A stretch of 64,000 bases of DNA from an uncultured Candidatus Saccharibacteria bacterium. GTDB lineage: Bacteria; Patescibacteriota; Minisyncoccia; Minisyncoccales; JAGMDC01. The number at the start of each line of letters is the position of its first letter. Positions within the stretch are counted from its first letter, which is position 1. The DNA lies in contig CAZTQA010000002.1 of assembly GCA_964615205.1 (NCBI GenBank), positions 53,286 through 117,285 on the forward strand. Reading direction: 5' to 3'. A program made the translations under genes and the position numbers. Of this stretch, positions 2,671-59,106 are shown piece by piece. The notes beneath the pieces are model-generated. The model did not search any database. It was not told the DNA's origin and worked only from the letters and a program-made list of their open reading frames with translations.

Positions 2671-5580
2671 TTACAAGTTAATGGTGATTGCGTTAGCTTC
2701 TGATTGAATGCTCCAATTTGATCCGCCAAACCCAGCATAACCGCTTGTTACAGTAACATCTGTATAAGCGTTTATGTACCATTTCTGGCTCAAATCAACT
2801 GTTCCCCAATCAGAATCGGTAAAGTCAACCCTTAATTCAATGGTTTTAGGAACTCCAATTTCAACAGTTAGATTGGTTCCAATACCAGAGAAAGCAATAG
2901 TTCCATCTGACTGACTAAGAGTTCTGGTAGTAGTAAGCTCTGTTCCATCTCCATCGTAAAGCTTGAACAATGTTGCGTCTGTGGTTCCAGTAATAGCAGT
3001 TGGTATTCCACTGTCAGTAGTAAAGGTTATAGCTGTAATAACAGCGTTTGCCAGATTGGCATCCATATTAGCAACATCCCATCTACCTACTACTGTATTA
3101 CTTGAAGGACTAACAGTTCCAGAAGGAGAATCTGATGCCTTGGTTATCTCTACCACTTTAGTGTCTAACTGGAATGTACCTCCGCTGTACGGACTGCTGA
3201 TAGCAAAATCAATAGCGGCACTGGCATCTGCATCTGTTCCGCTTTCAATACCAGTTAAGGTTAAGTTTGCCGTAGCTGCTACAGTTAAGTGGAAATCAGC
3301 AACATCACTAGTGCTACTAGGGTTACCCACTAAAAGAATATTTCTGTAAACGTTCTTTTCAAAACGAATATCAGTATCCCATGTATCAGAATCAAAAGTA
3401 AATACACCACCTGACTCTGAAACTGAATCAGTTAAAGGAGTGGTTCCATCATCAGCAAAAATCCTTAAAGCGCTAAGCTTACCAGTAGATGATGGCGTAA
3501 TAACTAAATCCTTTAATTTCATATCCTCTCTGGTAGTTCTAATCTTCAAAGCGCCAAAAACAACATTTGCGCTTGGAGTTAACACACCTTGATTGTAATG
3601 AGTTAAGGTTTTATCAGTGCTCGCAGCGCTGGTAAATGTTCCAGCAGCGTAAATCTTGATATTGGTACTAGCTACATCAGTAGCTGAGGTAATGGCTTCT
3701 CCAGATGACAAACCGGTTGCAGAATAACCGCTGAAAGTAATGGTTATTACATCATCATTAGCATCCAGGTTATCAGTAATACCCCTAACAGCTAATTTCT
3801 TGGTTGTTCCAGCAGGAACAGTCCAAGATAAAGAATATTCTTCTCCAGGATCAGCAGTCTCGGCATTTACAGTCAGTGTACTGGTAGAAACTGCGCTATA
3901 TCCATCACTGGTTACTTCATAAAGACCAACAGAACTTAAGTAATTAGTACCAGCAATATCAGGAGTACCAGCAAACAGAACATTGATGGTATCAAATATT
4001 ACAGCCTCTCCGGTTGCCTTTACATCAAATACAGCTAATGTTTGTGGAGATGTTGACTGAATCATAAAGGCATTTTGCCCTTGAGGATGATCAGCAGACA
4101 TTGCAACTGATATAGAACCAGTTCCAATAGTAACAGTATTAGCAGTGGTTGTTCCAGTGCTTGAAACATTTACACCAGAAGTAGCTCCCTTACCAATAAT
4201 AGCTCCGTCAGCAGCCACAGCCATTTTAATGGTGTTTCCGCTTCCGTTAACAATATCAGCTATTAATTCAAAGCTTTGGGAATAACCTTTAGTTAAGCTT
4301 ACTGGTGAAGTCAGATTAAAGGTAACTTTGTCATTACTTCCTAAGGTTCCAGCAGCTGTTACTGCATCTCCGCCGATTTTTCTAACTTTGAGATTAGAAA
4401 TATCAGAAGCAGAAATGGTTCCTGTGTTAGTGAATGTCATCTGATTAATAGTGACATCTTCATTAGAACCAGCAGAAACAGTGAATTTTTCTAACACAAT
4501 CTCTTTCTCTCCAATCTTGGCAGTATCCTTTGGAAGTGAACTGTATTCAGCTACAGTCAAAGTTCCAAGAGAACCAGCCGGCACAACTGTAAACACATTA
4601 CCTTTGACTGGAAAGTCACCAGTAAAGGTGGCTCCGCTTATTGCTGAAGCAGAATCAATACCCATTTGGACAGTACTCATTGTTGTTCCAGCAGCTGCAA
4701 TATTAACAGCAACACTTATCGTCCTGCTTCCTCCTTGAGGAATGGACAATTGAGGAACAATAACAAAAGTTGCTTGTCCGCCCACCAAATTCTTTTCAGT
4801 GGCTACCTCAATATTGTTTTCGTCAAGAAGCTTGACTTTAGCAATAGTAGTGGTATTGGTTTCAGCAGTTCCGTAGTTCTTTACAGTAAGACCGCTGATA
4901 GTGGTAGCTTCATCCTCACTGCCGTAAATAACGAATTTGGTTACTGTGTTAATAGCAGAACCTTTCATTACATTGGCAGATAAAGGTGTTTCTTTGGAAA
5001 GCACCACGCTTAATGGCTCAACTCCCTCCTCTTCCTCTTCCTCTTCTTCTTCCTCCTCTTCTTCTTCCTCCTCTTCTTCTTCCTCCTCAGCATCAGCTAA
5101 TAATTCGTTTAACTTTTCAATAGTAGTGTCACCGACATAACCGGTTCCAGAAGTTAAATTCCAAGGAGCCAATACATCTTCTTCATATAGCTCTTGGAAA
5201 TCAATAACCGCTGCTTTGGTCAAAGGACCAAAATAGTCAGTTTCGCTTCCTGGAGAACCAGCCCCGGTTTCAGCTACTTGTGTTCTAGAATCGCTATTTA
5301 AAACGATCTGTAAACATTCAACGTCATCGCCGGACATTCCTTGACTTAAGTGTCGGTCAAAAGCGGTGATGGAACAGCCAGAAACAGATGGAACAGTAGC
5401 GCCTTCCAATTCAGCTAACTGATTTTGAAGTTGGGTTAATTGAGATAATAAAGCATCAATTTGAACCTGAAGTTCAGCAGCAGTTAATGCTTGAGCTGGA
5501 GCAACGGCTACACTCATCATCATAACCGCGCAAGCCAAAGTAGTAGTACCGGCAACAATTTTTCTAATTAATTTAGACAT
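2671..5580 (-). CDS. Large S-layer-like cell-surface protein: signal peptide, coiled coil, PG-binding domain, poly-Glu linker, long Thr/Ser/Gly-rich beta domain
   Basis: signal peptide; 'DVECLQIVLN...GPLTKAAVIDFQ' PG_binding_1-like segment; run of about 22 Glu; T/S/G/V-rich remainder; rho-independent terminator immediately 3' of the gene. Confidence 0.55.
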   Translation of the reverse strand: MSKLIRKIVAGTTTLACAVMMMSVAVAPAQALTAAELQVQIDALLSQLTQLQNQLAELEGATVPSVSGCSITAFDRHLSQGMSGDDVECLQIVLNSDSRTQVAETGAGSPGSETDYFGPLTKAAVIDFQELYEEDVLAPWNLTSGTGYVGDTTIEKLNELLADAEEEEEEEEEEEEEEEEEEEEEGVEPLSVVLSKETPLSANVMKGSAINTVTKFVIYGSEDEATTISGLTVKNYGTAETNTTTIAKVKLLDENNIEVATEKNLVGGQATFVIVPQLSIPQGGSRTISVAVNIAAAGTTMSTVQMGIDSASAISGATFTGDFPVKGNVFTVVPAGSLGTLTVAEYSSLPKDTAKIGEKEIVLEKFTVSAGSNEDVTINQMTFTNTGTISASDISNLKVRKIGGDAVTAAGTLGSNDKVTFNLTSPVSLTKGYSQSFELIADIVNGSGNTIKMAVAADGAIIGKGATSGVNVSSTGTTTANTVTIGTGSISVAMSADHPQGQNAFMIQSTSPQTLAVFDVKATGEAVIFDTINVLFAGTPDIAGTNYLSSVGLYEVTSDGYSAVSTSTLTVNAETADPGEEYSLSWTVPAGTTKKLAVRGITDNLDANDDVITITFSGYSATGLSSGEAITSATDVASTNIKIYAAGTFTSAASTDKTLTHYNQGVLTPSANVVFGALKIRTTREDMKLKDLVITPSSTGKLSALRIFADDGTTPLTDSVSESGGVFTFDSDTWDTDIRFEKNVYRNILLVGNPSSTSDVADFHLTVAATANLTLTGIESGTDADASAAIDFAISSPYSGGTFQLDTKVVEITKASDSPSGTVSPSSNTVVGRWDVANMDANLANAVITAITFTTDSGIPTAITGTTDATLFKLYDGDGTELTTTRTLSQSDGTIAFSGIGTNLTVEIGVPKTIELRVDFTDSDWGTVDLSQKWYINAYTDVTVTSGYAGFGGSNWSIQSEANAITINL

Positions 5581-6612: not shown

Positions 6613-7107
6613 CTAAGCCAGTTCTTTTTTAAGGGCTTTCAATCCCCTGTGCAGCATAATCCTAATATTTCCTTCTGTTTTGTCCATAACTTCAGCTATT
6701 TCTCTAATGGGCATATCTTCAATATAATGGCAGAAAACCACATCTTGATACTCTGGCTTTATCTTAGATAAAGCTAACTTTATTTGTTCAAAATCTGATT
6801 TAGAAAAAACCTGTTCTTCTAAATTCTCCCTGTCTTCCAATTCCGGGCAATCATCAACTGAAACTGTCTTAATTTTGTTTTTTTCCCTATAATGGTCAGC
6901 TACCATATTTCTAGCTATCTGAAAAATAAAGGCCTGGGGATTTTTTATGTCTTGTTTTGAATTTAAGCTATGCCAAAAACGGGTAAAAACCTCTGAACAA
7001 AGATCTTCAGCTGTTTCTGAAGAATCCACTTTTAAAAGCACAAATCTATAGACCTTGGCAATATAACTATCATATATTTGACTGAATTTTTGGCTTATAC
7101 TCTCCAT
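6613..7107 (-). CDS. ECF-family RNA polymerase sigma-70 factor
   Basis: region 2 ('FTRFWHS...IARNMVADHYR') and region 4 HTH ('IREIAEVMDKTEGNIRIMLHRGLKALK') motifs. Confidence 0.85.
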   Translation of the reverse strand: MESISQKFSQIYDSYIAKVYRFVLLKVDSSETAEDLCSEVFTRFWHSLNSKQDIKNPQAFIFQIARNMVADHYREKNKIKTVSVDDCPELEDRENLEEQVFSKSDFEQIKLALSKIKPEYQDVVFCHYIEDMPIREIAEVMDKTEGNIRIMLHRGLKALKKELA

Positions 7108-7117
7108 AATTTGGTTT

Positions 7118-7194
7118 TGTCATATGACACTATGTCTAAACGTCATATGACAAAGGAATTATGTCATATGACATACATATTCTGTCATATGACA
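7118..7194. promoter_or_regulatory. Array of four copies of the 10-bp palindrome GTCATATGAC (three copies extend to the 12-bp palindrome TGTCATATGACA) spaced 21-23 bp apart; putative operator in the ECF sigma promoter
   Basis: palindromes read directly at 7119-7128, 7142-7151, 7163-7172 and 7184-7193; located between the stop of the HTH regulator gene (7195) and the start of the ECF sigma gene (7107). Confidence 0.6.
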
Positions 7195-7722
7195 TTACCC
7201 TAATTCGTAAAATGTATTACTAAAATCCCCTCTTAGTTTGATTAAACCTTTATTTTTCAAAAAAACAACATCCCTTTGAATAGTTCTTTTGCTTACTTTG
7301 GAAAAGTAATTCTGAATTTCCTTTAGCTGAACTCTCTTTTTCTCTTCTATAATAGCTAATATTTCCTTCTGGCGTTGAGAGATTTCTTTTGGGTTAGCTT
7401 TTTTTTCTTCAAAATAACTTTTCAATTCACTATATATTTTATCATATTCTCTCTGAAGTACCAAGAAATTGGAGGGTTTGGTTAATGACTTAGCAACAGC
7501 TGAATCAAAACATTCCTTAAGATTTTCTATATTCTTAGCTGTTTCTTTTGCCAGATAGATATCTTCAGCATTTGACCTCCTGCTACTCTGAAAAACAATA
7601 AGGTTACCCAGAATATTATTCACCTGGCCCCTTATATCCCCTCTCAAGGGTTCTTCTTTAGGAAAAACATCTGTCACCTTGTAAACAGCAAAACTTAAAT
7701 TAATAATTTGTTCTCTATTCAT
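7195..7722 (-). CDS. Transcriptional regulator with C-terminal DeoR-like winged HTH
   Basis: C-terminal 'ILAIIEEKKRVQLKEIQNYFSKVSKRTIQRDVVFLKNKGLI' matches the DeoR-type wHTH pattern; N-terminal 120 aa of unknown function. Confidence 0.5.
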   Translation of the reverse strand: MNREQIINLSFAVYKVTDVFPKEEPLRGDIRGQVNNILGNLIVFQSSRRSNAEDIYLAKETAKNIENLKECFDSAVAKSLTKPSNFLVLQREYDKIYSELKSYFEEKKANPKEISQRQKEILAIIEEKKRVQLKEIQNYFSKVSKRTIQRDVVFLKNKGLIKLRGDFSNTFYELG

Positions 7723-7795
7723 GGTTAAGTAATAAAAAAGCCGCTTCTATTTATAATACTAATAAAAACAGCTCCGTCAACCTGTGGATAATTAA

Positions 7796-7819
7796 GTAAA
7801 CTCACGATCGTGAGATTAC
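7796..7819. repeat. 24-bp near-perfect palindrome GTAAACTCACGATCGTGAGATTAC (copy 1 of 3), preceded by TGTGGATAA (7783-7791)
   Basis: read directly; abuts the stop of the ComEA/LTD gene; about 75 bp upstream of the start of the 7195..7722 regulator. Confidence 0.7.
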
Positions 7820-10800
7820 CTATCGTATTGGTTTGACAAAGTAAATAGAGTAATGACCCGGGAGATAAACGATTTTGTCGAAACCCAAAGAAATGCTCTG
7901 TCGGAAGCGCTCAAATGACTGACTAAAGATTTCTTCACCGTTAGAGTTTAAACCCATAACACCGCCGCCAGAACCAAGATAAGTATAAATATTCCCTTGG
8001 GAGTCAACAACTAAACTGTCTAAAGGATTGCTTAGCAATCTTTTCTCCCAAACAACTTTTCCGGTTGAAACGCTGACAGCATAAAGAACTCCGTAAACAG
8101 AACCAACCGGGCCCCAAACCGGATGGCGAGTGGCATAAACAACTTCTTCATCTGGGCTCAAAGCCCTAGGAAAAAGACCGTCGTAAGCAAGAGTCCAGAG
8201 TATATCCCCTTCTGAATTCAAAGCATGAAGATATTTGGAACGAATAAAGATTTTATTGTCTTGAGAAATAATAGGATAACTTAAATGTTCGGCTAATCTG
8301 TGAAGTTCTTCAAATTCTGTCTGCCATTTTTCTGTTCCGTCAGAATTAAAAGCCCAAAGCTTATTTTTATGGCTTACATAAACAGTTCCATCCGGTCCCA
8401 CAGAAGGAGAACTAATTTCATCGTCTATTTCTCTGCCAAAAGATTTTTTCCATAATTCCTGGCCTTGATTATCTAAAGCAAAAAGCACATGGTCATAGAC
8501 GTCATCCTCTTTCAAAAAAGTGCTGAAATAAACCACGCCCTCATCATCAACCGCTGGAGAAGTAGTATTAAACATATAATCAATTTCTTTTTTCCACATA
8601 AATCTGCCCGAAGAATCAACTGCGATTAATCCAGTTCCAGACATAAAATAAACTGTACCATCTGGACTGATAGCCGGAGAACTCCTAAGCATGCCCACAT
8701 CTGCTTCGTAAAACCATTCCTTATTCCCTTGAGTATCAAAAGTGTAAATTCCTGTTTTAAGCTCCACCCTTGCCGGAACATAAACCCTGTCGTTCGTAGC
8801 TACTACCAAACCAAAATAATCTCTATCCTCTTTTCTGCCAGCGAATATTCCTGAATCAATATCTTCACTATCGGGCCCTTCAAACCGGCTATAGCCGGAC
8901 CGTTGAGCGTTACCCCCAAACATTTTCCAGGGACTTTGGAAAAAATCCTCTTTATAGAAACTATTTTCTTGTTTGGGAGTCCCAAAAATTGAGTTTCCAT
9001 TAGCATCCTTACCATTAAATATTATCTGATTGTTATCCTGCCACTCATTCAAGCCAATCCTTTCCATAGAAATATAATCCGGTCCAGCTTTACCAGCCAG
9101 CCAAAGACCGTCTTGCGAACAAGTAGTAGAATCAATTAAATTATCATTCTGGTCAAAAAGCCATAGAACTTCACAACTATTATTACCCAATCCATTGCCA
9201 AAAGAACCGGTCCAGTCAGCGGAAATATCAGAAACAGCATTATCGTCTGTGCGTTCTATCAAATAAAAACCGTCTTCAGGAATAGTGGTTGTTCCTAACC
9301 CCTCAATAAAAGAAATGTCCGGCCCATTGTCTGAAGACACTAATTTCCAGCCGGAAATATCTATTTCTTTATCAGTATTGTTATAAAGCTCAATCCATTC
9401 ATCAAAACCAGATGCTTTGGTCCCCATCCAGGCAACTTCGTTTATTAAAACATCTTGCTTGTCCGCCGTAGCTTCAGCGGAGGCGGATTCTTCCTCTTCC
9501 CGATCTTCTTCATTCTCCTGATTCCCTTGGCTCTCTTCATTCTCTTGCTCTCCTGGGTTTCCTCCCCCATTTTCCTCTTCTTGGTTTTTGCTCGTCTCTA
9601 CTGGATTAGTAATATTAATTTTACTTTTAAATTCCGACAAATAATTACTTTTTCCGTTTTCTCTAACTCTAGCTATAATATCTGCCTGGCCTTGAAAATC
9701 TTGATTTTCAATTTTTAATCTAAATTTATTTTCAAACGAAGTGCCAAAGAAAACTTCTTCAATATAGTAAATGGAAGACTGCCAATTATTATCCTCGTCA
9801 CAATCAGAGTAGCAAATAGAAGGGAAAGGACTGCCGGTATCAATGGAAATCTTCACATCATAAACGACAAGATGAAGATTGGAAACAGAAAAAATAACTT
9901 CAATTTCCTTGTTTACCGGGTTTTCTTCTGGATAATCAAGTATAATCTCAGGAGAAGGAGTAGAGGAAGAACTAGAACTAGAACTAGAACTAGAACTAGA
10001 ACTAGAATCATCTTTAGGACCAACGTCATTTTCGACATAAGCGCAATCCTGGTCTATTATTTTTTGCAAGGTTATTTCACCGATTCCGCTCACCCTTATC
10101 AGTTCATAAAGAGAAGAAAAAGGTCTTCCATCTATTATCCTTTGAGCAATTACTGGTCCAACGCCTATTATTTTCTGCAAATCCTCTTTAGATGCAGTAT
10201 TAATATTTACAAGACAGATATCTGTTTCTTCTTCGTCTAATTTTTTTTCAACCTCCTCTTCTTCAATTTCTTCTTCAATTTCTTCTTCAATTTCTTTCTC
10301 TTTAATTTCCTCCTGATCCACTTGATCTTCTTGATTTTCTGGTTCTTGATCCTCTTGGTTCTCTTGATCCCCTATCTCCTCATTCTCTTGCTCTTCTTGA
10401 TTTTTTCGCCCTTCTATGTCAGAAGAAAATGGTTCTGAAACTTGAGCTCCAAAATCAGAAAATATATCAGCTATATTTTTAAAATCATCAACCGTACCCG
10501 ATATTTCATTTTCTATGCTTTTTCTAATCTTTCCAAAAAAAGAAGCCGGCTCCTCAAAGGGATAAGCCGGCACCGGCTCTGAAAAAATTACTTCCACTTT
10601 TGAAGAATCATCCCAGACAAACCCTCCGGTGTAAAGTTCATTCACCCCGCCCGTTATCTTTACAATAAATGGTGAAAGCTTAGTATTTCCTCTCTCAAGC
10701 CATTCTTCTATATCCCAAGGAGATCTTCCTAGCCACATAATACTGGAAGTTCCTTTTAACGGCTCTACTTCTTCAGGACAATAAAATTCTTCAACTATAT

Positions 10801-11326
10801 TTGATTTGTCATTGCCTAAATAACGATAATTAATAAGGTAATGAAATTTTGGCTCTTGAACATTCTTTTTATAAGAAATATATTTAAATTTTAATGGCCC
10901 GTTAGCTATTTTTAATTCATTTTGTGAAAGCCAATCTTTAACTATCTGAACAGCTTTCTCAACTGTCTCTTTTTCTATTTTATCTATAATAGAAGAAATG
11001 TCGTGTTTTAAGATTAAAGAGGCCCCAACTTTAATGATTTTTTCAAGGTATTCTTTAGGAATTTCTACAAAACAATAAGACAGTTCTTTTTTCTGGATTC
11101 CGCTTCTGACCAAAAATAAAGCCGCCTGTTTTTCTGGAGAGGAAAAATCCGGAGAGGTAGTCATATTTATCCATTCATCTACTAATTTATGCTGGCTAGA
11201 ATTCAAAATATTGATAGCCTTTGTTTTTTCTAATTCGTATTCTTCTGAATAACATAAATTTGGCACAACTAAAAAACCTATTACGCAAAATAACATAAAA
11301 AAGCTTAAAAATTTTCTTTTCGTCAT
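7820..11326 (-). CDS. Giant secreted multidomain protein: ComEA-type helix-hairpin-helix DNA-binding module, lamin-tail domain (LTD), C-terminal PQQ-like beta-propeller, acidic and poly-Ser linkers
   Basis: signal peptide; 'NINTASKEDLQKIIGVGPVIAQRIIDGRPFSSLYELIRVSGIGEITLQKI' matches the ComEA HhH pattern; 'VLINEVAWMGTKASGFDEWIELYNNTDKEIDISGWKL' matches the LTD pattern; repeated 'DGTVYF/GTVYV...W' propeller blades; poly-Ser from (AGAACT)n. Confidence 0.65.
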   Translation of the reverse strand: MTKRKFLSFFMLFCVIGFLVVPNLCYSEEYELEKTKAINILNSSQHKLVDEWINMTTSPDFSSPEKQAALFLVRSGIQKKELSYCFVEIPKEYLEKIIKVGASLILKHDISSIIDKIEKETVEKAVQIVKDWLSQNELKIANGPLKFKYISYKKNVQEPKFHYLINYRYLGNDKSNIVEEFYCPEEVEPLKGTSSIMWLGRSPWDIEEWLERGNTKLSPFIVKITGGVNELYTGGFVWDDSSKVEVIFSEPVPAYPFEEPASFFGKIRKSIENEISGTVDDFKNIADIFSDFGAQVSEPFSSDIEGRKNQEEQENEEIGDQENQEDQEPENQEDQVDQEEIKEKEIEEEIEEEIEEEEVEKKLDEEETDICLVNINTASKEDLQKIIGVGPVIAQRIIDGRPFSSLYELIRVSGIGEITLQKIIDQDCAYVENDVGPKDDSSSSSSSSSSSSSSSTPSPEIILDYPEENPVNKEIEVIFSVSNLHLVVYDVKISIDTGSPFPSICYSDCDEDNNWQSSIYYIEEVFFGTSFENKFRLKIENQDFQGQADIIARVRENGKSNYLSEFKSKINITNPVETSKNQEEENGGGNPGEQENEESQGNQENEEDREEEESASAEATADKQDVLINEVAWMGTKASGFDEWIELYNNTDKEIDISGWKLVSSDNGPDISFIEGLGTTTIPEDGFYLIERTDDNAVSDISADWTGSFGNGLGNNSCEVLWLFDQNDNLIDSTTCSQDGLWLAGKAGPDYISMERIGLNEWQDNNQIIFNGKDANGNSIFGTPKQENSFYKEDFFQSPWKMFGGNAQRSGYSRFEGPDSEDIDSGIFAGRKEDRDYFGLVVATNDRVYVPARVELKTGIYTFDTQGNKEWFYEADVGMLRSSPAISPDGTVYFMSGTGLIAVDSSGRFMWKKEIDYMFNTTSPAVDDEGVVYFSTFLKEDDVYDHVLFALDNQGQELWKKSFGREIDDEISSPSVGPDGTVYVSHKNKLWAFNSDGTEKWQTEFEELHRLAEHLSYPIISQDNKIFIRSKYLHALNSEGDILWTLAYDGLFPRALSPDEEVVYATRHPVWGPVGSVYGVLYAVSVSTGKVVWEKRLLSNPLDSLVVDSQGNIYTYLGSGGGVMGLNSNGEEIFSQSFERFRQSISLGFDKIVYLPGHYSIYFVKPIR
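9968..10003. repeat. Hexanucleotide microsatellite (AGAACT)6 encoding the poly-Ser tract inside the 7820..11326 CDS
   Basis: six perfect tandem units read directly. Confidence 0.8.
10259..10294. repeat. 12-bp tandem repeat (TTCTTCAATTTC)x3 encoding (EEIE)n inside the 7820..11326 CDS
   Basis: three perfect units read directly. Confidence 0.8.
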
Positions 11327-11330
11327 TAAA

Positions 11331-11933
11331 TTACTCTATGGTCAAATTATCTATAAATTTATTTAATGATTGCGAGCATTTTTCCAAATTTTCAGAACTA
11401 GTACTTATTCCTATGCCTCGCAATAAATCATCTAAAATATATATTTCAATTGAAGGACCTAATTCTAAACAATCAAAAGTATTCTTTAGAATATTCTTTC
11501 CTTTAATTTCTATTTCCTCAAAATTATCATACTGAATAGCTAAAAAACTATGATTTTCTTTTATTTCTTCTTTTAAGTCCTCTGTATTAATTTTTCTATA
11601 ATCTACTACTGTCTCAATCATACAACCTTGCTGGAGAGGCGGCCTTATCTTATCTGGATTCAATCCTTGAGCATCTGGACTGTAAAAAACCACTGAACCT
11701 TCCATTACATTTATCTTCCTAACGCTCCACCCTTCCGGAGCCTTCATCGTCAAGCCAGCTTTTTTGTTTTCTACAATTGTCCCCTCTTCTGTTTCTATAA
11801 TCACATAATCATCAGGACTGCCGACTTTTTCTCTCTTTTCTTGCTTGAAATAAAAAAACACGGCTCCTGCCGCTAAAATTAATATAATAATTAAAATAAA
11901 AAAATTCCTCTTATTTTCTATTTTCAAAAACAT
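11331..11933 (-). CDS. Hypothetical membrane-anchored protein
   Basis: N-terminal TM helix; no recognisable motif. Confidence 0.35.
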   Translation of the reverse strand: MFLKIENKRNFFILIIILILAAGAVFFYFKQEKREKVGSPDDYVIIETEEGTIVENKKAGLTMKAPEGWSVRKINVMEGSVVFYSPDAQGLNPDKIRPPLQQGCMIETVVDYRKINTEDLKEEIKENHSFLAIQYDNFEEIEIKGKNILKNTFDCLELGPSIEIYILDDLLRGIGISTSSENLEKCSQSLNKFIDNLTIE

Positions 11934-11989
11934 TATTTAATTTTACAACCACCCTCTAACTTTTCAACCCTTCCCCTGTGGATAACTAA

Positions 11990-12013
11990 GTAATCTCACG
12001 ATCGTGAGATTAC
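11990..12013. repeat. 24-bp perfect palindrome GTAATCTCACGATCGTGAGATTAC (copy 2), preceded by TGTGGATAA (11977-11985)
   Basis: read directly; 3 nt from the stop of the PaaX-like gene; about 57 bp upstream of the start of the 11331..11933 gene. Confidence 0.7.
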
Positions 12014-12016
12014 TTT

Positions 12017-12565
12017 TTATAGTAATTTAAAAATCTTTTCCAAATGTAATTCATTATCTATAAAATCCAATGTACCGTAGCGAACATATTTTCTTAAGTC
12101 AAAAAACTCAATAATAAAATCTAATTCATCTTCGCATTTATAGGGAAAAACAAAGACGCTTTTTTGCAGTTCGTAAAAACCTAATTTTTTAAGCTTATCC
12201 CTCAAAGCGTCTCTCCCTCTTCTTAATTTCTCTGGAATATCAAATATAACTATTCTCCATTTACCGTCCCAATTATCTCTTCTAATTTTCATCTTTTCAA
12301 AATGAAAATTCAAAGCTTTCAATTTACCTTTCTTTGTCAAAACCAAAGTACTACTCTTATCGGAATTCTCTTTAAAATCAACTAATTTTGATCCATAGAG
12401 TTTTCTTATTTCTTCGTTGAGTTTTCTTTGATTGATTAGTTTCCATTCTCTAGCTGTTTCCTTTAATATCTTAATCTGCCCTCTGGACGTATAGGTAAAA
12501 TCTAAAGCCAAACCACTTAATAAAAGAATTATGATCTTTTGTTTATTGGAAGATAACTCAGACAT
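12017..12565 (-). CDS. Minimal PaaX-family-like transcriptional regulator (N-terminal wHTH plus C-terminal Cas2-like ferredoxin-fold domain)
   Basis: N-terminal 'IIILLLSGLA...LTKKGKL' winged-helix pattern; C-terminal 'RIVIFDIPEKLRRGRDALRDKLKKLGFYELQKSVFVFP' matches the PaaX_C/Cas2-like fold signature; flanked on both sides by the 24-bp palindrome. Confidence 0.5.
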   Translation of the reverse strand: MSELSSNKQKIIILLLSGLALDFTYTSRGQIKILKETAREWKLINQRKLNEEIRKLYGSKLVDFKENSDKSSTLVLTKKGKLKALNFHFEKMKIRRDNWDGKWRIVIFDIPEKLRRGRDALRDKLKKLGFYELQKSVFVFPYKCEDELDFIIEFFDLRKYVRYGTLDFIDNELHLEKIFKLL

Positions 12566-12594
12566 TACTTAATAATAGCAAAAACATCACTAAA

Positions 12595-12618
12595 GTAAAC
12601 TCACGATCGTGAGATTAC
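12595..12618. repeat. 24-bp palindrome GTAAACTCACGATCGTGAGATTAC (copy 3)
   Basis: read directly; 30 bp upstream of the PaaX-like start codon (12565). Confidence 0.7.
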
Positions 12619-12769
12619 TTATGGATTAACTATAGGTTATTTCTAATTAAATTTTGTTTAGATTTGTTTAGTAAAAAAAATGGACTCCGGAAAGGAGCAC
12701 TTTATTCGCTTGTGTAGAAATCCAGTTGATTGGTGATTACTATTAACAAAATAAGAACCGCAAATATGA

Positions 12770-26676: not shown

Positions 26677-26710
26677 CCCTATTAAAAAAATTAGTTATCC
26701 ACAGAGAAAA

Positions 26711-35993: not shown

Positions 35994-37070
35994 TCAATCT
36001 GTGGAAAACTTTTTTCTTGTTAAAATGACTTTCGCGGCTGCTCTAATTCTTTTCCTCATTAAGATCAAAATGACAAGGACAAAAAGAATTATTAGGAAAA
36101 TTTTCCATGGGAAAATCCAAAAGCTGATATACTTGTCTATCTGGTTATTTCCAAAATTCATTATTAAATGGGCTTGAAATTTGCCCCAAAGTAAATTTCT
36201 AGAAATAAAATTAGAAATAGTTTCTGGCAGATATTTAGCAATTTTTTCTGAAAGCGAAGCTTTGAATTCAACCGGAAATCTGCGGATTTTGCCAGGCATA
36301 ATAGTGGTTTCAGCCACAATTGTTTCCCCTACTGTTCTGCCAGTCCAGGAAGTAATAACTAATTTGCCTTCTGGCTTGATATGGAAAAGGTCATTATTTT
36401 GAATACGCAAAGTAAAAGGCAGTTCGCTGGCACTGACAATAAAAAAAGGTTTTTCTTCCTTGGCTAAAGCTTTGGCAAACAGGCCGCTGGCGCTGGCTAA
36501 AGCATTTTCTAATTTCTGAAGATGGAAGTTTTCAGGAATATTAAACTCAACCACAGTTAAGGGTTCTGATGATCTTTGTTTGTCTTTCATATCAACGGAA
36601 AGCAGAAATAAAACACCAATTTCAGGAACAGCTTTAACTGTTTTATTTTCAAAGTAATAAGAAGGCAGTTTGGGTCCAAATAAGATAGTAACATAATATC
36701 CTCCAGCATTTACTTCTTGAGGGATATTGATTTCAAACTTAACTTTTTCTGACTGGTGGGGCTCTAAAATAAAATAAGGGTTTTCAATTTCAAACCAATC
36801 CCGCGGATTAACAGCTGTTTCCTCTGGAAAATCTATAGCTCCTTCCTCGCCCACTGCTTCAAAGTTAATTGTTTTGGCTTCAAAGGGTATGCTTAGATCG
36901 CTTTTATTTAACAAATAAATCCTGTCCTGATAATTCTGGCCTTTTTCCAACTCCAACTCAAAAATCGGCGGAGAGACAAAGATGTTTATTCCCTCATTAG
37001 CATGACATATTCCGTTAATGGATATTAACACCAAACTAACTAAAATTATTTTTAATATTGTGCTGTGCAT
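35994..37070 (-). CDS. Cell-surface beta-sandwich protein with C-terminal TM anchor (DUF916/CscA-like topology), paralogue A
   Basis: signal peptide; C-terminal 'FWIFPWKIFLIILFVLVILILMRKR'; 19-bp overlap with the upstream giant gene. Confidence 0.45.
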   Translation of the reverse strand: MHSTILKIILVSLVLISINGICHANEGINIFVSPPIFELELEKGQNYQDRIYLLNKSDLSIPFEAKTINFEAVGEEGAIDFPEETAVNPRDWFEIENPYFILEPHQSEKVKFEINIPQEVNAGGYYVTILFGPKLPSYYFENKTVKAVPEIGVLFLLSVDMKDKQRSSEPLTVVEFNIPENFHLQKLENALASASGLFAKALAKEEKPFFIVSASELPFTLRIQNNDLFHIKPEGKLVITSWTGRTVGETIVAETTIMPGKIRRFPVEFKASLSEKIAKYLPETISNFISRNLLWGKFQAHLIMNFGNNQIDKYISFWIFPWKIFLIILFVLVILILMRKRIRAAAKVILTRKKFSTD

Positions 37071-52530: not shown

Positions 52531-52580
52531 AAAAACCGCCCTTACTAAAAGGCGGAATGAGTGAGGCCGAACCTCACTCA
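52531..52580 (-). terminator. Dual-hairpin intrinsic terminator (copy 1 of a repeated element)
   Basis: hairpins gagtgagg-ccgaa-cctcactc (52559-52579) and ccgcc..ggcgg (52536-52555), then a U-run in minus sense; identical architecture at 58251-58300. Confidence 0.6.
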
Positions 52581-53000
52581 AAATGACATCGTATCTGTTC
52601 TTAGCTGGATTGACTGGGCAGTAATGCTTCCATCTTGGTTTGTTTTTCCATTGATTGTAACCGAGCTTCCAATTTCAAGATCATCTGATACTCCGTTTAC
52701 AAATTTACTTATTTCTGTACTGTCTGAATAAAAAATGATTTTTGATCCGCCGTCAGGCAGTTTTATGGTAATACTTTGTTCATCTTTTGAAATAATCTCT
52801 CCGCTGGCAAAACCTGCACTTGTCCGATTGCTTACCCTACCAGCTCCTGCGCCTATATCAGCCATTCCCATTTCTTGAAACTTTTGTTGTCTTTCTTCTG
52901 AAGTTAAATCGCCGGTTTGGGCATATTTCATTCCTCCTAAAAAGCCACCTGTGCCCACTAATGCAGTTATGGCTATAATGATTATAAAATTTTTGTTCAT
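52578..53000 (-). CDS. Small secreted beta-rich protein (DUF5666-like)
   Basis: signal peptide; Gly/Ser-rich segment; C-terminal beta domain. Confidence 0.35.
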   Translation of the reverse strand: MNKNFIIIIAITALVGTGGFLGGMKYAQTGDLTSEERQQKFQEMGMADIGAGAGRVSNRTSAGFASGEIISKDEQSITIKLPDGGSKIIFYSDSTEISKFVNGVSDDLEIGSSVTINGKTNQDGSITAQSIQLRTDTMSF

Positions 53001-58250: not shown

Positions 58251-58300
58251 AAAAACCGCCTTCGCTAGAAGGCGGAATGAGTGAGGCCGAACCTCACTCA
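58251..58300 (-). terminator. Dual-hairpin intrinsic terminator (copy 2)
   Basis: hairpins gagtgagg-ccgaa-cctcactc (58279-58299) and ccgcc..ggcgg (58256-58275) plus a U-run. Confidence 0.6.
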
Positions 58301-59106
58301 AAACGGCAGGTATCTTTATTCCAATTGAGCACTCTATAATCGCTTTCCGGACAAGGGTCATCCATAGATTGCATTATGTCCGGCACTTTCTTAATTATCA
58401 TTTTCTCATCTAATAAACTTATTTTTAATCCGTAATCCGATTCAGCTACTCCATTGTTTTCTGCCAAGGAAGTATTATTTATGGTTTGAACTTCTTCAAA
58501 ACTATTATTTTTTATTTTAAATAGAGCTGCATTGCCAAAACAGCATGTTCTATTAGGGCAGCCGTGCGAAACAAAGGCAATATATTTTATTCCTTGGCAA
58601 TCATAAAATCCGAACCCACCTTGATCTCCTCCAAATTGTACTTGATCTGTATAAAAATCATAGTCTTCACTGTCGTAAGAAGAAGTAGATGTTAAAAGAC
58701 TTCCATTTTTATCAAACAAACCAAGATAGGTATGATATAATCCATCAACATGTGGTACGCCATCAAGTCGAACAATTAAGAGCAATGTTTTCTCTTTATT
58801 ATTTGCGAAATAACCCTCAATAGAATCTTCTAAATAAAGATTGAAATGTTCAGAATGCGTTTCTGTGTGATTGGCTATGCCGTCAGTGAAGGTTAAATTA
58901 GGAAAAAGCTTATGAAGCAATACATCTTTATCTAACTTAGAAAAATCATTTCTTGGATGTTTTATAGCTTCCGGAGATTCAATGTTTGGCGTTCCGGTAA
59001 AGTAACATTCATAGGTTAATTTAAATACAACAGCCGTAATTATTAATACGGCTATAAGAATTATTATCAAGGGTATTGATATTCCCCTATTTAAATCTTT
59101 AAACAT
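58294..59106 (-). CDS. Secreted/membrane-anchored hypothetical protein, Cys-containing
   Basis: N-terminal TM helix or signal anchor. Confidence 0.35.
   Translation of the reverse strand: MFKDLNRGISIPLIIILIAVLIITAVVFKLTYECYFTGTPNIESPEAIKHPRNDFSKLDKDVLLHKLFPNLTFTDGIANHTETHSEHFNLYLEDSIEGYFANNKEKTLLLIVRLDGVPHVDGLYHTYLGLFDKNGSLLTSTSSYDSEDYDFYTDQVQFGGDQGGFGFYDCQGIKYIAFVSHGCPNRTCCFGNAALFKIKNNSFEEVQTINNTSLAENNGVAESDYGLKISLLDEKMIIKKVPDIMQSMDDPCPESDYRVLNWNKDTCRFE

Follow-up and report, generated by a model that had tools for sequence, protein, structure and literature searches.

Closest described systems

PaaX of Escherichia coli and Pseudomonas (structures PDB 8a39, 3l09 and 3kfw) is the phenylacetyl-CoA-responsive repressor of the paa operon (family models TIGR02277 and PF07848 + PF20803 + PF08223), and consists of a winged helix-turn-helix (wHTH), a Cas2-like domain (PaaX_M) and an effector domain (PaaX_C). 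In E. coli it binds TGATTC-N27-GAATCA, a long dyad of 6 + 27 + 6 bp, and represses its own promoter (PMC9493321). Repetitive extragenic palindromic (REP) repeats and their doublets (REPINs) are short, multi-copy and mostly intergenic, often at 3′ ends. They go together with a REP-associated tyrosine transposase (RAYT) gene, which is single-copy, vertically inherited, syntenically stable and flanked by its own repeat type; several such gene/repeat families can occur in one genome. Rickettsia palindromic elements (RPE) and similar repeats of the miniature inverted-repeat transposable element type are found in frame in essential protein-coding genes. Here we describe a locus which shares traits with these systems and with Cas2. 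In a 64-kb stretch of DNA from an uncultured Candidatus Saccharibacteria bacterium (contig CAZTQA010000002.1), called the window throughout, the gene of a 182-aa PaaX-like protein is bracketed by two copies of a palindrome, and a third copy lies nearby.

Like PaaX, the 182-aa protein has PaaX_M, preceded by a probable wHTH, and a long dyad lies over the predicted promoter of its own gene. Unlike PaaX, it is short, has no PaaX_C domain for phenylacetyl-CoA and scores below the threshold of the PaaX equivalog model; there are no paa (phenylacetate catabolism) genes nearby, and the sites are perfect, spacer-less palindromes, which bracket the gene, are dispersed and also occur inside open reading frames (ORFs). 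The locus shares with REP/RAYT systems the multi-copy short palindromic repeats, mostly intergenic and often at 3′ ends, the single-copy, vertically inherited and syntenically stable gene flanked by its own repeat type, and the presence of several gene/repeat families per genome. Extra copies away from the gene flanks were found in the window (at 7796) and in the loci L006, L016, L019 and L158. RAYTs, however, are HUH Y1 transposases of the IS200/IS605 type, whereas this protein has a wHTH and a Cas2-like domain, and domain searches gave no Y1_Tnp match. The repeats are single spacer-less perfect palindromes (AAGTAAWCTCACGATCGTGAGWTTACTT) instead of doublets, carry no GTAG/CGTC tag, number ~11 inferred copies against the hundreds of REPINs and, unlike REP repeats, also lie in frame inside genes. 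The in-frame copies resemble RPE, but RPE are ~100–150 bp long, whereas the elements here measure 28–50 bp and have a cognate flanked gene. With Cas2 and stand-alone Cas2/VapD proteins the protein shares the fold and the N-terminal β1-α1 motif, and palindromic repeats of 28–40 bp are associated with it. It differs from Cas2 in lacking both a neighbouring cas1 gene and a CRISPR array, in having its repeats on either side of the gene and not in an array with spacers, in aligning with no more than the first half of the Cas2 model, and in the fusion of the domain to a wHTH.

The module belongs neither to PaaX proper, nor to Cas2 proper, nor to REP/RAYT, and in the literature searched we met no report that connects PaaX or Cas2-like proteins to palindromic repeats of this kind. 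By analogy, the best reading is that it would work like a PaaX-type autoregulated dyad binder and resemble REP/RAYT systems in its organisation, the HUH transposase being replaced by a PaaX/Cas2-like protein. With moderate confidence, we consider the three palindromes of the window to be the cognate, dispersed and symmetry-maintained repeat of the PaaX/Cas2-like protein, which would bind them, in an association similar to that of REP and RAYT.

Conservation of the gene and its palindromes

We scanned the flanks of homologues in 80 genome loci (849 kb in total), in which 75 genes had enough flanking sequence. A flanking palindrome was counted at ≥10 pairs, and the scan for all palindromes took perfect ones with a stem ≥10 and a loop ≤2. 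Of these 75 Patescibacteria homologues, 58 had a palindrome on at least one side and 30 on both. These flanking palindromes were typically perfect, spacer-less and 20–52 bp long. In the 849 kb, 69 of the 119 perfect palindromes were located at ≤150 bp from the gene, and the same was true for 48 of the 52 centred on CGATCG. In the main clade the centre was nearly always CGATCG, and the arms differed from genome to genome.

The family occupies at least eight recurrent syntenic slots in housekeeping contexts, with two to four paralogues per genome. Examples are ClpB-peptidase-X-membrane protein-giant protein (the window type), secY-adk-map-X-tpiA, and a position upstream of an S1-like gene, X being the PaaX_M gene. 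The conserved slots indicate that the PaaX_M genes are stable and vertically inherited, and not fresh transposon copies. We rejected a recently mobile cassette of the insertion sequence type, because the paralogues sit in conserved syntenic slots and are just 40–65% identical to each other. A phage or viral origin was rejected too, as no relatives turned up on the IMG/VR contigs searched. Judging from these genomes, the gene and its flanking palindromes form a conserved, vertically inherited module, with several paralogous modules per genome, each with a palindrome type of its own.

The palindrome type tracks the protein clade and not the host genome. For example, in the genome MHPJ one paralogue (L031) has ACAAAATACTACGATCGTAGTATTTTGT, of the CGATCG type, and another (L085) has TACGGTTTTTTGCCGWWCGGCAAAAAACCGTA, of the GCCGWWCGGC type; the latter matches the type of its relatives L077 and L080 in two other genomes. 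Other centres specific for protein clades were GCTATAGC, GCGACCGC and GGCGTACGCC. These clade-specific types are the strongest evidence for a cognate relation between protein and site, which is likely because the link between gene and palindrome is real and evolutionarily conserved.

Long perfect palindromes (32–60 bp) with the other centres CAATTG, CCATGG, AATATT and GAATTC were also seen kilobases away from PaaX_M genes in Patescibacteria loci (L062, 328–359 and 10078–10115; L083, 2460–2519; L030, 7937–7980; L048, 1261–1306). Spacer-less perfect palindromes seem to be generally over-represented in these Patescibacteria genomes.

The three copies in the window

The 24-bp sequence GTAAWCTCACGATCGTGAGATTAC was found at 7796–7819, 11990–12013 and 12595–12618, with 0.00 copies expected from 100 shuffles, which rules out a chance or low-complexity origin. 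With three mismatches allowed, no further site was found in the 64 kb. Its 14-nt core CTCACGATCGTGAG matched three times versus 0.09 expected, and the hexamer CGATCG is present in the window solely at the three palindromes. A previous reading of the window, made from the sequence only (the sequence-only reading), had given the same sequence and coordinates for the three copies and the same placement of the neighbouring genes, and both are right. It had described the copy at 11990 as a perfect palindrome of 24 bp; the copy is perfect, but 28 bp long (11988–12015). Copies 1 and 3 have a single A·A mismatch pair each. The single-stranded DNA folding energies of copies 1, 2 and 3 were −4.9, −10.7 and −6.6 kcal/mol (z = −1.7, −5.9 and −3.5). 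Five independent assemblies of the window’s organism had an identical protein and both gene-flanking copies.

Two copies had been credited with a conserved 5′ extension. The extension, TGTGGATAA, is present at 7783–7791 and 11977–11985; read on the opposite strand, it gives the DnaA-box consensus TTATCCACA. We rejected it as a part of the repeat, as it is a separate, promoter-proximal DnaA-box-like motif found elsewhere in the window too. The remark that no U-tract follows the copies was no more than roughly right. Their coding-strand tails (TTTACTTAAT, TTACTTAGTT and TTTACTTTAG) are weakly T-rich, and the terminator scan gave weak terminator-like matches, through an inner 5-bp stem, for copies 1 and 3 on the coding strand, and flagged copy 2 on the plus strand, where it is followed by TTTTTA.

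Most of the 4-base palindromes examined in the window were rare relative to the base composition (TCGA 0.12, ACGT 0.20, CTAG 0.25, CATG 0.26, GTAC 0.31 and GATC 0.45 of the expectation), and CCGG was over-represented (2.27). A known RNA family or tRNA was rejected, as Rfam and ARAGORN gave no match anywhere in the 64 kb. So was a CRISPR mini-array or cas locus, there being neither a regularly spaced array in the window nor a cas1 gene among the neighbours.

The 182-aa protein

The PaaX-like character claimed for the protein was confirmed by a match to PF20803 (PaaX_M) at residues 97–167 (E = 2e-23; 82.7 bits, cutoff 24), and by E. coli PaaX (8a39) as the top structural match. The N-terminal part (residues ~1–95) is a predicted winged helix, and the Cas2-like PaaX_M domain carries an invariant FDIPE...LQKSVF motif. 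PaaX_C (PF08223) had no match, the chain ending ~15 residues past PaaX_M. A Pfam search with residues 1–96 gave no match, and a weak profile match linked residues 34–96 to the wHTH of YodB (E = 0.17). The AlphaFold model (predicted local distance difference test, pLDDT, of 76; 61–76 in the N-terminal domain) showed three helices and a β-hairpin, followed by a ferredoxin-like domain. In Foldseek, PaaX 8a39 (E = 6.5e-5) was followed by Rv0674 (3kfw) and then by VapD and Cas2 structures; winged-helix structures were also among the fold matches.

Neither the PaaX nor the Cas2 models fitted in full. The score for TIGR02277 (PaaX equivalog) was 28.1 bits versus a cutoff of 264.55. TIGR01573 (Cas2) scored 27.9 versus a cutoff of 24.5, with only model positions 2–43 of 96 aligned, and PF09827 (Cas2) scored 22.9, under its cutoff of 23.8. 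Membership in a defence system was rejected, since PADLOC gave nothing beyond partial Cas2 matches. Family members are called “Cas2” at NCBI and “PaaX” at JGI. The family is large, with 724 word-limited matches (60–72% identity, ~179 aa, mostly Patescibacteria) and 4,939 representatives at 50% identity (E ≤ 1e-3).

The Cas2-like part is far more strongly conserved than the wHTH (column entropy 0.89 versus 1.5–1.9). Invariant in all clades are W99, D100, D109 (in FDIPE), P111, R118, G129, Q134-K135-S136, P141 and C144. In Cas2, the Asp at the end of β1 is a metal ligand. The Cas2-type Asp is retained here as D109, unlike in the PaaX-like Rv0674, which has a Thr at this position, so that a nuclease activity is possible. 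A search for covariation between residues and bases of the palindrome core gave no clear signal: clades whose cores differ share one set of invariant residues.

Copies outside the module

We mined metagenomes for the 22-mer TAAWCTCACGATCGTGAGWTTA and found it on 68 contigs, representing 47 distinct sites after flank clustering. The G + C content of the contigs ranged from 27 to 60%, and the outer arms varied with symmetric compensation. Only six of the contigs had a PaaX_M-like gene. In all six it directly adjoined the palindrome, and in L098, L113 and L125 it was bracketed. About 37 of the 47 sites were solitary, on contigs with neither a PaaX_M-like gene nor the window’s own locus. By context, 27 sites were co-directional, 7 convergent and 3 divergent intergenic, 6 were inside ORFs and 4 at contig ends.

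For four of the six copies inside ORFs the host gene was confirmed by Pfam: tsaD, alaS, argS and a ResB-like gene. In each of the five in-ORF copies examined, the host gene reads through the palindrome in its only frame without stops, so that the encoded peptide is ...KLTIVSL... or ...NLTIVRL.... Further in-frame copies were found in the giant protein gene of L006 and at the 3′ end of jetD in Pontiella. Those of tsaD, alaS and argS fall in surface or variable loops, the TsaD loop being hypervariable. The occurrence of the palindrome elsewhere in genomes, even inside essential genes, points more toward a REP-type repeat element than toward a plain operator. Target-site duplications were not recognizable in 11 flanks, and terminal inverted repeats with a target duplication were not identified for the palindromes.

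The TsaD protein with the palindrome (P0121) is encoded on a 191,116-bp contig, the same size as the longest contig with the window’s protein. The proteins flanking seven other solitary sites with exactly the window’s arms (AAG...CTT) led to NCBI contigs of 205,458, 61,522, 43,698, 38,609, 28,959 and 191,116 bp. The tetranucleotide signatures of these contigs correlated with that of the window at r = 0.82–0.94, compared with 0.91 for a same-organism control and a median of 0.72 for other Patescibacteria. Most probably, about eight further sites, the tsaD copy included, belong to the window’s organism, which would bring its probable total to 11 copies or more, including two in ORFs. As far as its distribution tells, the palindrome is thus also a low-copy dispersed repeat, of 28 bp here and 20–52 bp in relatives, located at other intergenic sites and in frame in genes.

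In another TsaD homologue, P0133 from one of the Patescibacteria, nearly the same peptide of ~20 aa (…VKSFASSKRKSEILFNRVK…) was found in three loops (alignment columns 20–50, 240–275 and 300–320). Possibly a different repeat element has entered this essential gene in frame more than once.

The GC-rich contigs with the 22-mer were from Kiritimatiellota (Pontiella, Pontiellaceae and Kiritimatiellales). Their protein is full length (~270 aa), with PaaX_M and a weak PaaX_C match. The module architecture and the core CTCACGATCGTGAG are common to Patescibacteria and Kiritimatiellota (L098, and L158 of Pontiella desulfatans). In the cultured P. desulfatans, the gene PDESU_06202 has palindromes (...GCTCACGATCGTGAGC...) 31 nt upstream and 3 nt downstream. 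A third copy, a perfect palindrome of 44 bp, is found 7 kb away, where the neighbouring jetABCD operon ends; it falls in the final 17 codons of jetD. The palindrome of P. sulfatireligens is CTCACGGCCGTGAG. In L158 (CAAHFG010000005.1, 9933–17851), palindromes bracket the PaaX-like gene and also the adjoining Wadjet (JetABCD) anti-plasmid operon.

Symmetry of the palindromes

Between upstream and downstream copies, we counted 29 symmetric double changes which preserve pairing, versus 27 changes in a single arm. For example, L081 has TATA-CGATCG-TATA on one side and CTCA-CGATCG-TGAG on the other. Identical monomers on two half-sites do not predict symmetric changes at the positions in which the two sites differ. 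In window-type loci the copies within one genome are alike, and the orthologous positions in other genomes have different arms. The third copy is found just past the giant gene in the window and in L016, and inside the giant gene in L006; in L049 a palindrome of another type lies just past this gene. The window’s organism has two perfect “alleles”, TAATC...GATTA and TAAAC...GTTTA, plus a hybrid. Some process keeps the palindromes symmetric and homogenised, the candidates being selection for pairing, template switching and gene conversion.

Gene context in the window

All genes of the palindrome region are on the minus strand (Table 1). The neighbours of the PaaX_M gene are a ClpB, a trypsin-like peptidase, a membrane protein, a giant protein with lamin-tail and PQQ domains, a DeoR-type HTH (DeoR-HTH) protein and an extracytoplasmic function (ECF) sigma factor.

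Table 1 Features in and around the palindrome region of the window.
Feature	Position	Strand	Remarks
Palindrome copy 1	7794..7821	.	Directly at the stop codon of the 1168-aa gene and ahead of the DeoR-HTH promoter-like site
Palindrome copy 2	11988..12015	.	28-bp perfect palindrome AAGTAATCTCACGATCGTGAGATTACTT; 1–3 nt past the stop of the PaaX_M gene; ahead of the promoter-like site for the 200-aa membrane protein
Palindrome copy 3	12593..12620	.	AAGTAAACTCACGATCGTGAGATTACTT; 13/14 pairs; 27–29 nt upstream of the ATG of the PaaX_M gene; over the predicted −35
182-aa minimal PaaX gene (PaaX_M gene)	12017..12565	-	ATG 29 nt beyond the end of copy 3; copy 2 begins 3 nt past the stop
200-aa membrane protein	11331..11933	-	No family match; conserved downstream neighbour (cluster c12) in window-type loci; copy 2 lies 56 nt before the ATG
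1168-aa giant protein	7820..11326	-	Domains: ComEA-like helix-hairpin-helix, lamin-tail (LTD), PQQ beta-propeller
DeoR-HTH gene	7195..7722	-	Copy 1 lies 73 nt before its ATG
Promoter-like site of the PaaX_M gene	12572..12599	-	TTTACT-16-TATTAT, with TG; −35 overlaps an arm of copy 3
Promoter-like site of the 200-aa membrane protein gene	11940..11967	-	TTGAAA-16-TAAAAT, 10/12; 20–22 nt downstream (sense direction) of copy 2
Promoter-like site of the DeoR-HTH gene	7753..7780	-	TTGACG-16-TATTAT, 10/12; 15 nt after copy 1
Canonical terminator-like hairpin and T-run	12684..12698	-	GCTCCTTTCCGGAGT CCATTTTTTT; closes the upstream ClpB/peptidase unit ahead of copy 3
DnaA-box-like motif	11976..11985	-	Sense strand TTATCCACAG; between copy 2 and the −35
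DnaA-box-like motif, second copy	7782..7791	-	Between copy 1 and the DeoR-HTH −35 element, TTGACG

Each copy had been placed in a promoter region by the sequence-only reading, and on the coding strand each does overlap or closely precede a promoter-like site. Promoter-like matches in the window were not enriched over shuffles (27 vs 22), which makes the operator-like local geometry weak evidence. The predicted −10 of the PaaX_M gene ends 6 nt before the ATG, so its mRNA may be leaderless.

The DnaA-box-like motif is conserved as AGTTWTCCACAG past the downstream palindrome in 8 syntenic Patescibacteria loci. In the window, the motif (TTATCCACA / TTTTCCACA) is found by promoter-like −35 elements not only at the two positions in Table 1, but also at 26695, 44038, 36000 and 23967, with TTGACA directly after it at 36000. 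In L038 and L069 it makes its own hairpin with a T-run.

Interpretation

In our preferred reading, a cognate protein with its dispersed repeat, a protein dimer would sit on the dyad, with the variable wHTH domains on the variable arms and the conserved Cas2-like dimer over the CGATCG centre. At its own gene, where copy 3 lies over the predicted −35 in a geometry that fits autoregulation, binding would repress transcription, in the manner of canonical PaaX at Px. The other two copies, located 15–22 bp upstream of the −35 of the next promoters, may modulate those promoters. The element might spread and keep its perfection by protein-dependent cleavage or repair, by gene conversion or by template switching. 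A bolder version, in which the protein with its wHTH and Cas2-like domain acts as a site-specific nuclease or recombination factor and so generates, maintains or mobilises its palindromes, appears doubtful to us. If true, repeat-associated proteins would gain a new class with no relation to HUH transposases. The protein would also be a free-living Cas2 relative acting on palindromic repeats of ~30 bp, with a bearing on how Cas2 and palindromic CRISPR repeats met.

Several observations weigh against a cognate, dispersed repeat. The interaction of protein and palindrome is deduced from co-occurrence and covariation only, and 17 of the 75 homologues had no palindrome under our criteria. The recognition helix is fairly conserved though the inner palindrome arms vary widely, and covariation between residues and bases was not found. 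The hallmarks of REP/RAYT, namely a HUH/Y1 transposase, a GTAG tag and REPIN doublets, are absent. The assignment of solitary copies to the same organism relies on matching contig size, sample co-occurrence and tetranucleotide similarity, and not on contiguous sequence. Compared with its orthologues, the in-gene copy of L006 amounts to a net gain of ~6 aa and not to a clean indel. Finally, within the 64 kb all three copies are found inside 5 kb, in promoter-like positions, and locally a simple operator reading fits.

Such an operator reading would make the protein a plain autoregulated transcription factor, which represses itself, the membrane/giant-protein unit and the DeoR-HTH/ECF sigma unit, the other copies being regulon members or irrelevant. 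The promoter-like positions of all three copies agree with it, as do the canonical terminator that already closes the upstream operon, the known autorepression by PaaX on long dyads, the joint conservation of the DnaA-box-like motif and the palindrome upstream of the c12/c40 gene in 8 genomes, and the tracking of palindrome type with protein clade. We nevertheless hold purely operator palindromes to be unlikely. The downstream palindrome was as frequent or more so when the next gene was convergent (14 of 19 loci) than when it was co-directional (28 of 54), and with a convergent next gene there is no promoter available. Copies also lie between convergent genes, and in frame in tsaD, alaS, argS, jetD and the giant protein gene. 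Perfect palindromes of 40–52 bp with symmetric compensatory changes between two sites of one protein are not expected of operators. Regulon sites are degenerate, whereas the palindromes of one genome are nearly identical. From the autoregulated small regulon proposed in the sequence-only reading, a cognate pair with probable autoregulation is therefore likely to stand, but a promoter-operator regulon is not a general explanation, given the copies at convergent genes and in ORFs. The same reading had named as its counter-case a REP-like element at many sites unrelated to promoters. This is in part what we found, because the palindrome is present at 47 distinct metagenomic sites (7 convergent and 6 in ORFs), with ~37 of them solitary and ~8 further ones probably in this organism.

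Rather improbable, in our view, is a function at the RNA level, as transcribed hairpins with a C-GAUC-G loop. They would be bidirectional terminators or mRNA-stabilising or processing sites, and the Cas2-like (RRM-like, that is, RNA recognition motif-like) protein would bind or cleave the RNA hairpin, controlling termination or excising its own mRNA. Stand-alone Cas2 and VapD proteins are endoribonucleases, and both are structural neighbours of the 182-aa protein. Many palindromes are located 0–30 nt past stop codons, pairing is kept by symmetric compensatory changes, inner stems were flagged as weak terminator-like sites, and 23 of 59 palindromes have the layout of a bidirectional terminator, an A-run, a GC stem and a T-run (e.g., L016, AAAAAACCCACGATCGTGGGTTTTTT). 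However, 7 had the reverse polarity and 29 were mixed. G·U was not significantly more frequent than A·C among internal mismatches (16 versus 8, p = 0.15), so it was dropped as a sign of RNA-level function, and 21 of 45 mismatches were non-wobble. The window copies lack a real U-tract, the true terminators of the window look different, termination by in-frame copies would harm essential genes, and the N-terminal domain is a predicted wHTH of the DNA-binding type. A generic genome feature that is near the gene by chance, such as restriction or methylation sites (PvuI/Dam-type, CGATCG/GATC), HIP1-like palindromes or assembly and adapter artefacts, is strongly disfavoured and in our judgement highly improbable. 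The core does contain GATC and CGATCG, the window shows a general avoidance of short palindromes (e.g., GATC and TCGA), and the identical 22-mer is found in organisms of very different G + C content. Yet nearly all CGATCG-centred palindromes adjoin the gene, single genomes hold paralogue-specific palindrome types, the arms vary with compensation between organisms and are thus not a fixed adapter sequence, the window copies were reproduced in the five independent assemblies, and the single stop-free frame of the in-ORF copies implies selection in vivo.

The cognate repeat, if our reading holds, would be the apparent partner of a large, unstudied family, whose “Cas2” and “PaaX” members may be neither, and would bring to attention previously undescribed short perfect palindromic repeats in the genome-reduced Patescibacteria and in Kiritimatiellota. 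It would be a second, mechanistically different system of a repeat plus a cognate flanked gene, alongside REP/RAYT, and would account for odd in-frame inserts in essential genes of uncultured bacteria. For annotation, genes of this family should not be taken as evidence of CRISPR or of phenylacetate catabolism. The presence of the system in the cultured P. desulfatans makes it experimentally testable.

Other repeats in the window

Four exact GTCATATGAC palindromes were found at 7119–7193, with a spacing of 21–23 bp, and no others in the window. They lie in the space that separates the DeoR-HTH stop codon from the ECF sigma ATG (gene 6613..7107), and look like a classical operator array for the DeoR-HTH/ECF locus. 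The syntenic intergenic region of L038 had no obvious counterpart of this array.

A 58-nt repeat is present at 52531–52588 and 58251–58308 (90% identical), in both cases behind a minus-strand gene. It consists of two hairpins in tandem, namely TGAGTGAGGCCGAACCTCACTCA and a canonical CCGCC...GGCGG terminator with a T-run, the latter being how an ordinary terminator looks in this genome. Two very large surface-type proteins are encoded on the minus strand at 2671–5580 and 7820–11326, and have long acidic or serine low-complexity runs. These runs (an E-rich stretch, and poly-Ser in the 1168-aa protein) are the source of most direct-repeat families in the window.

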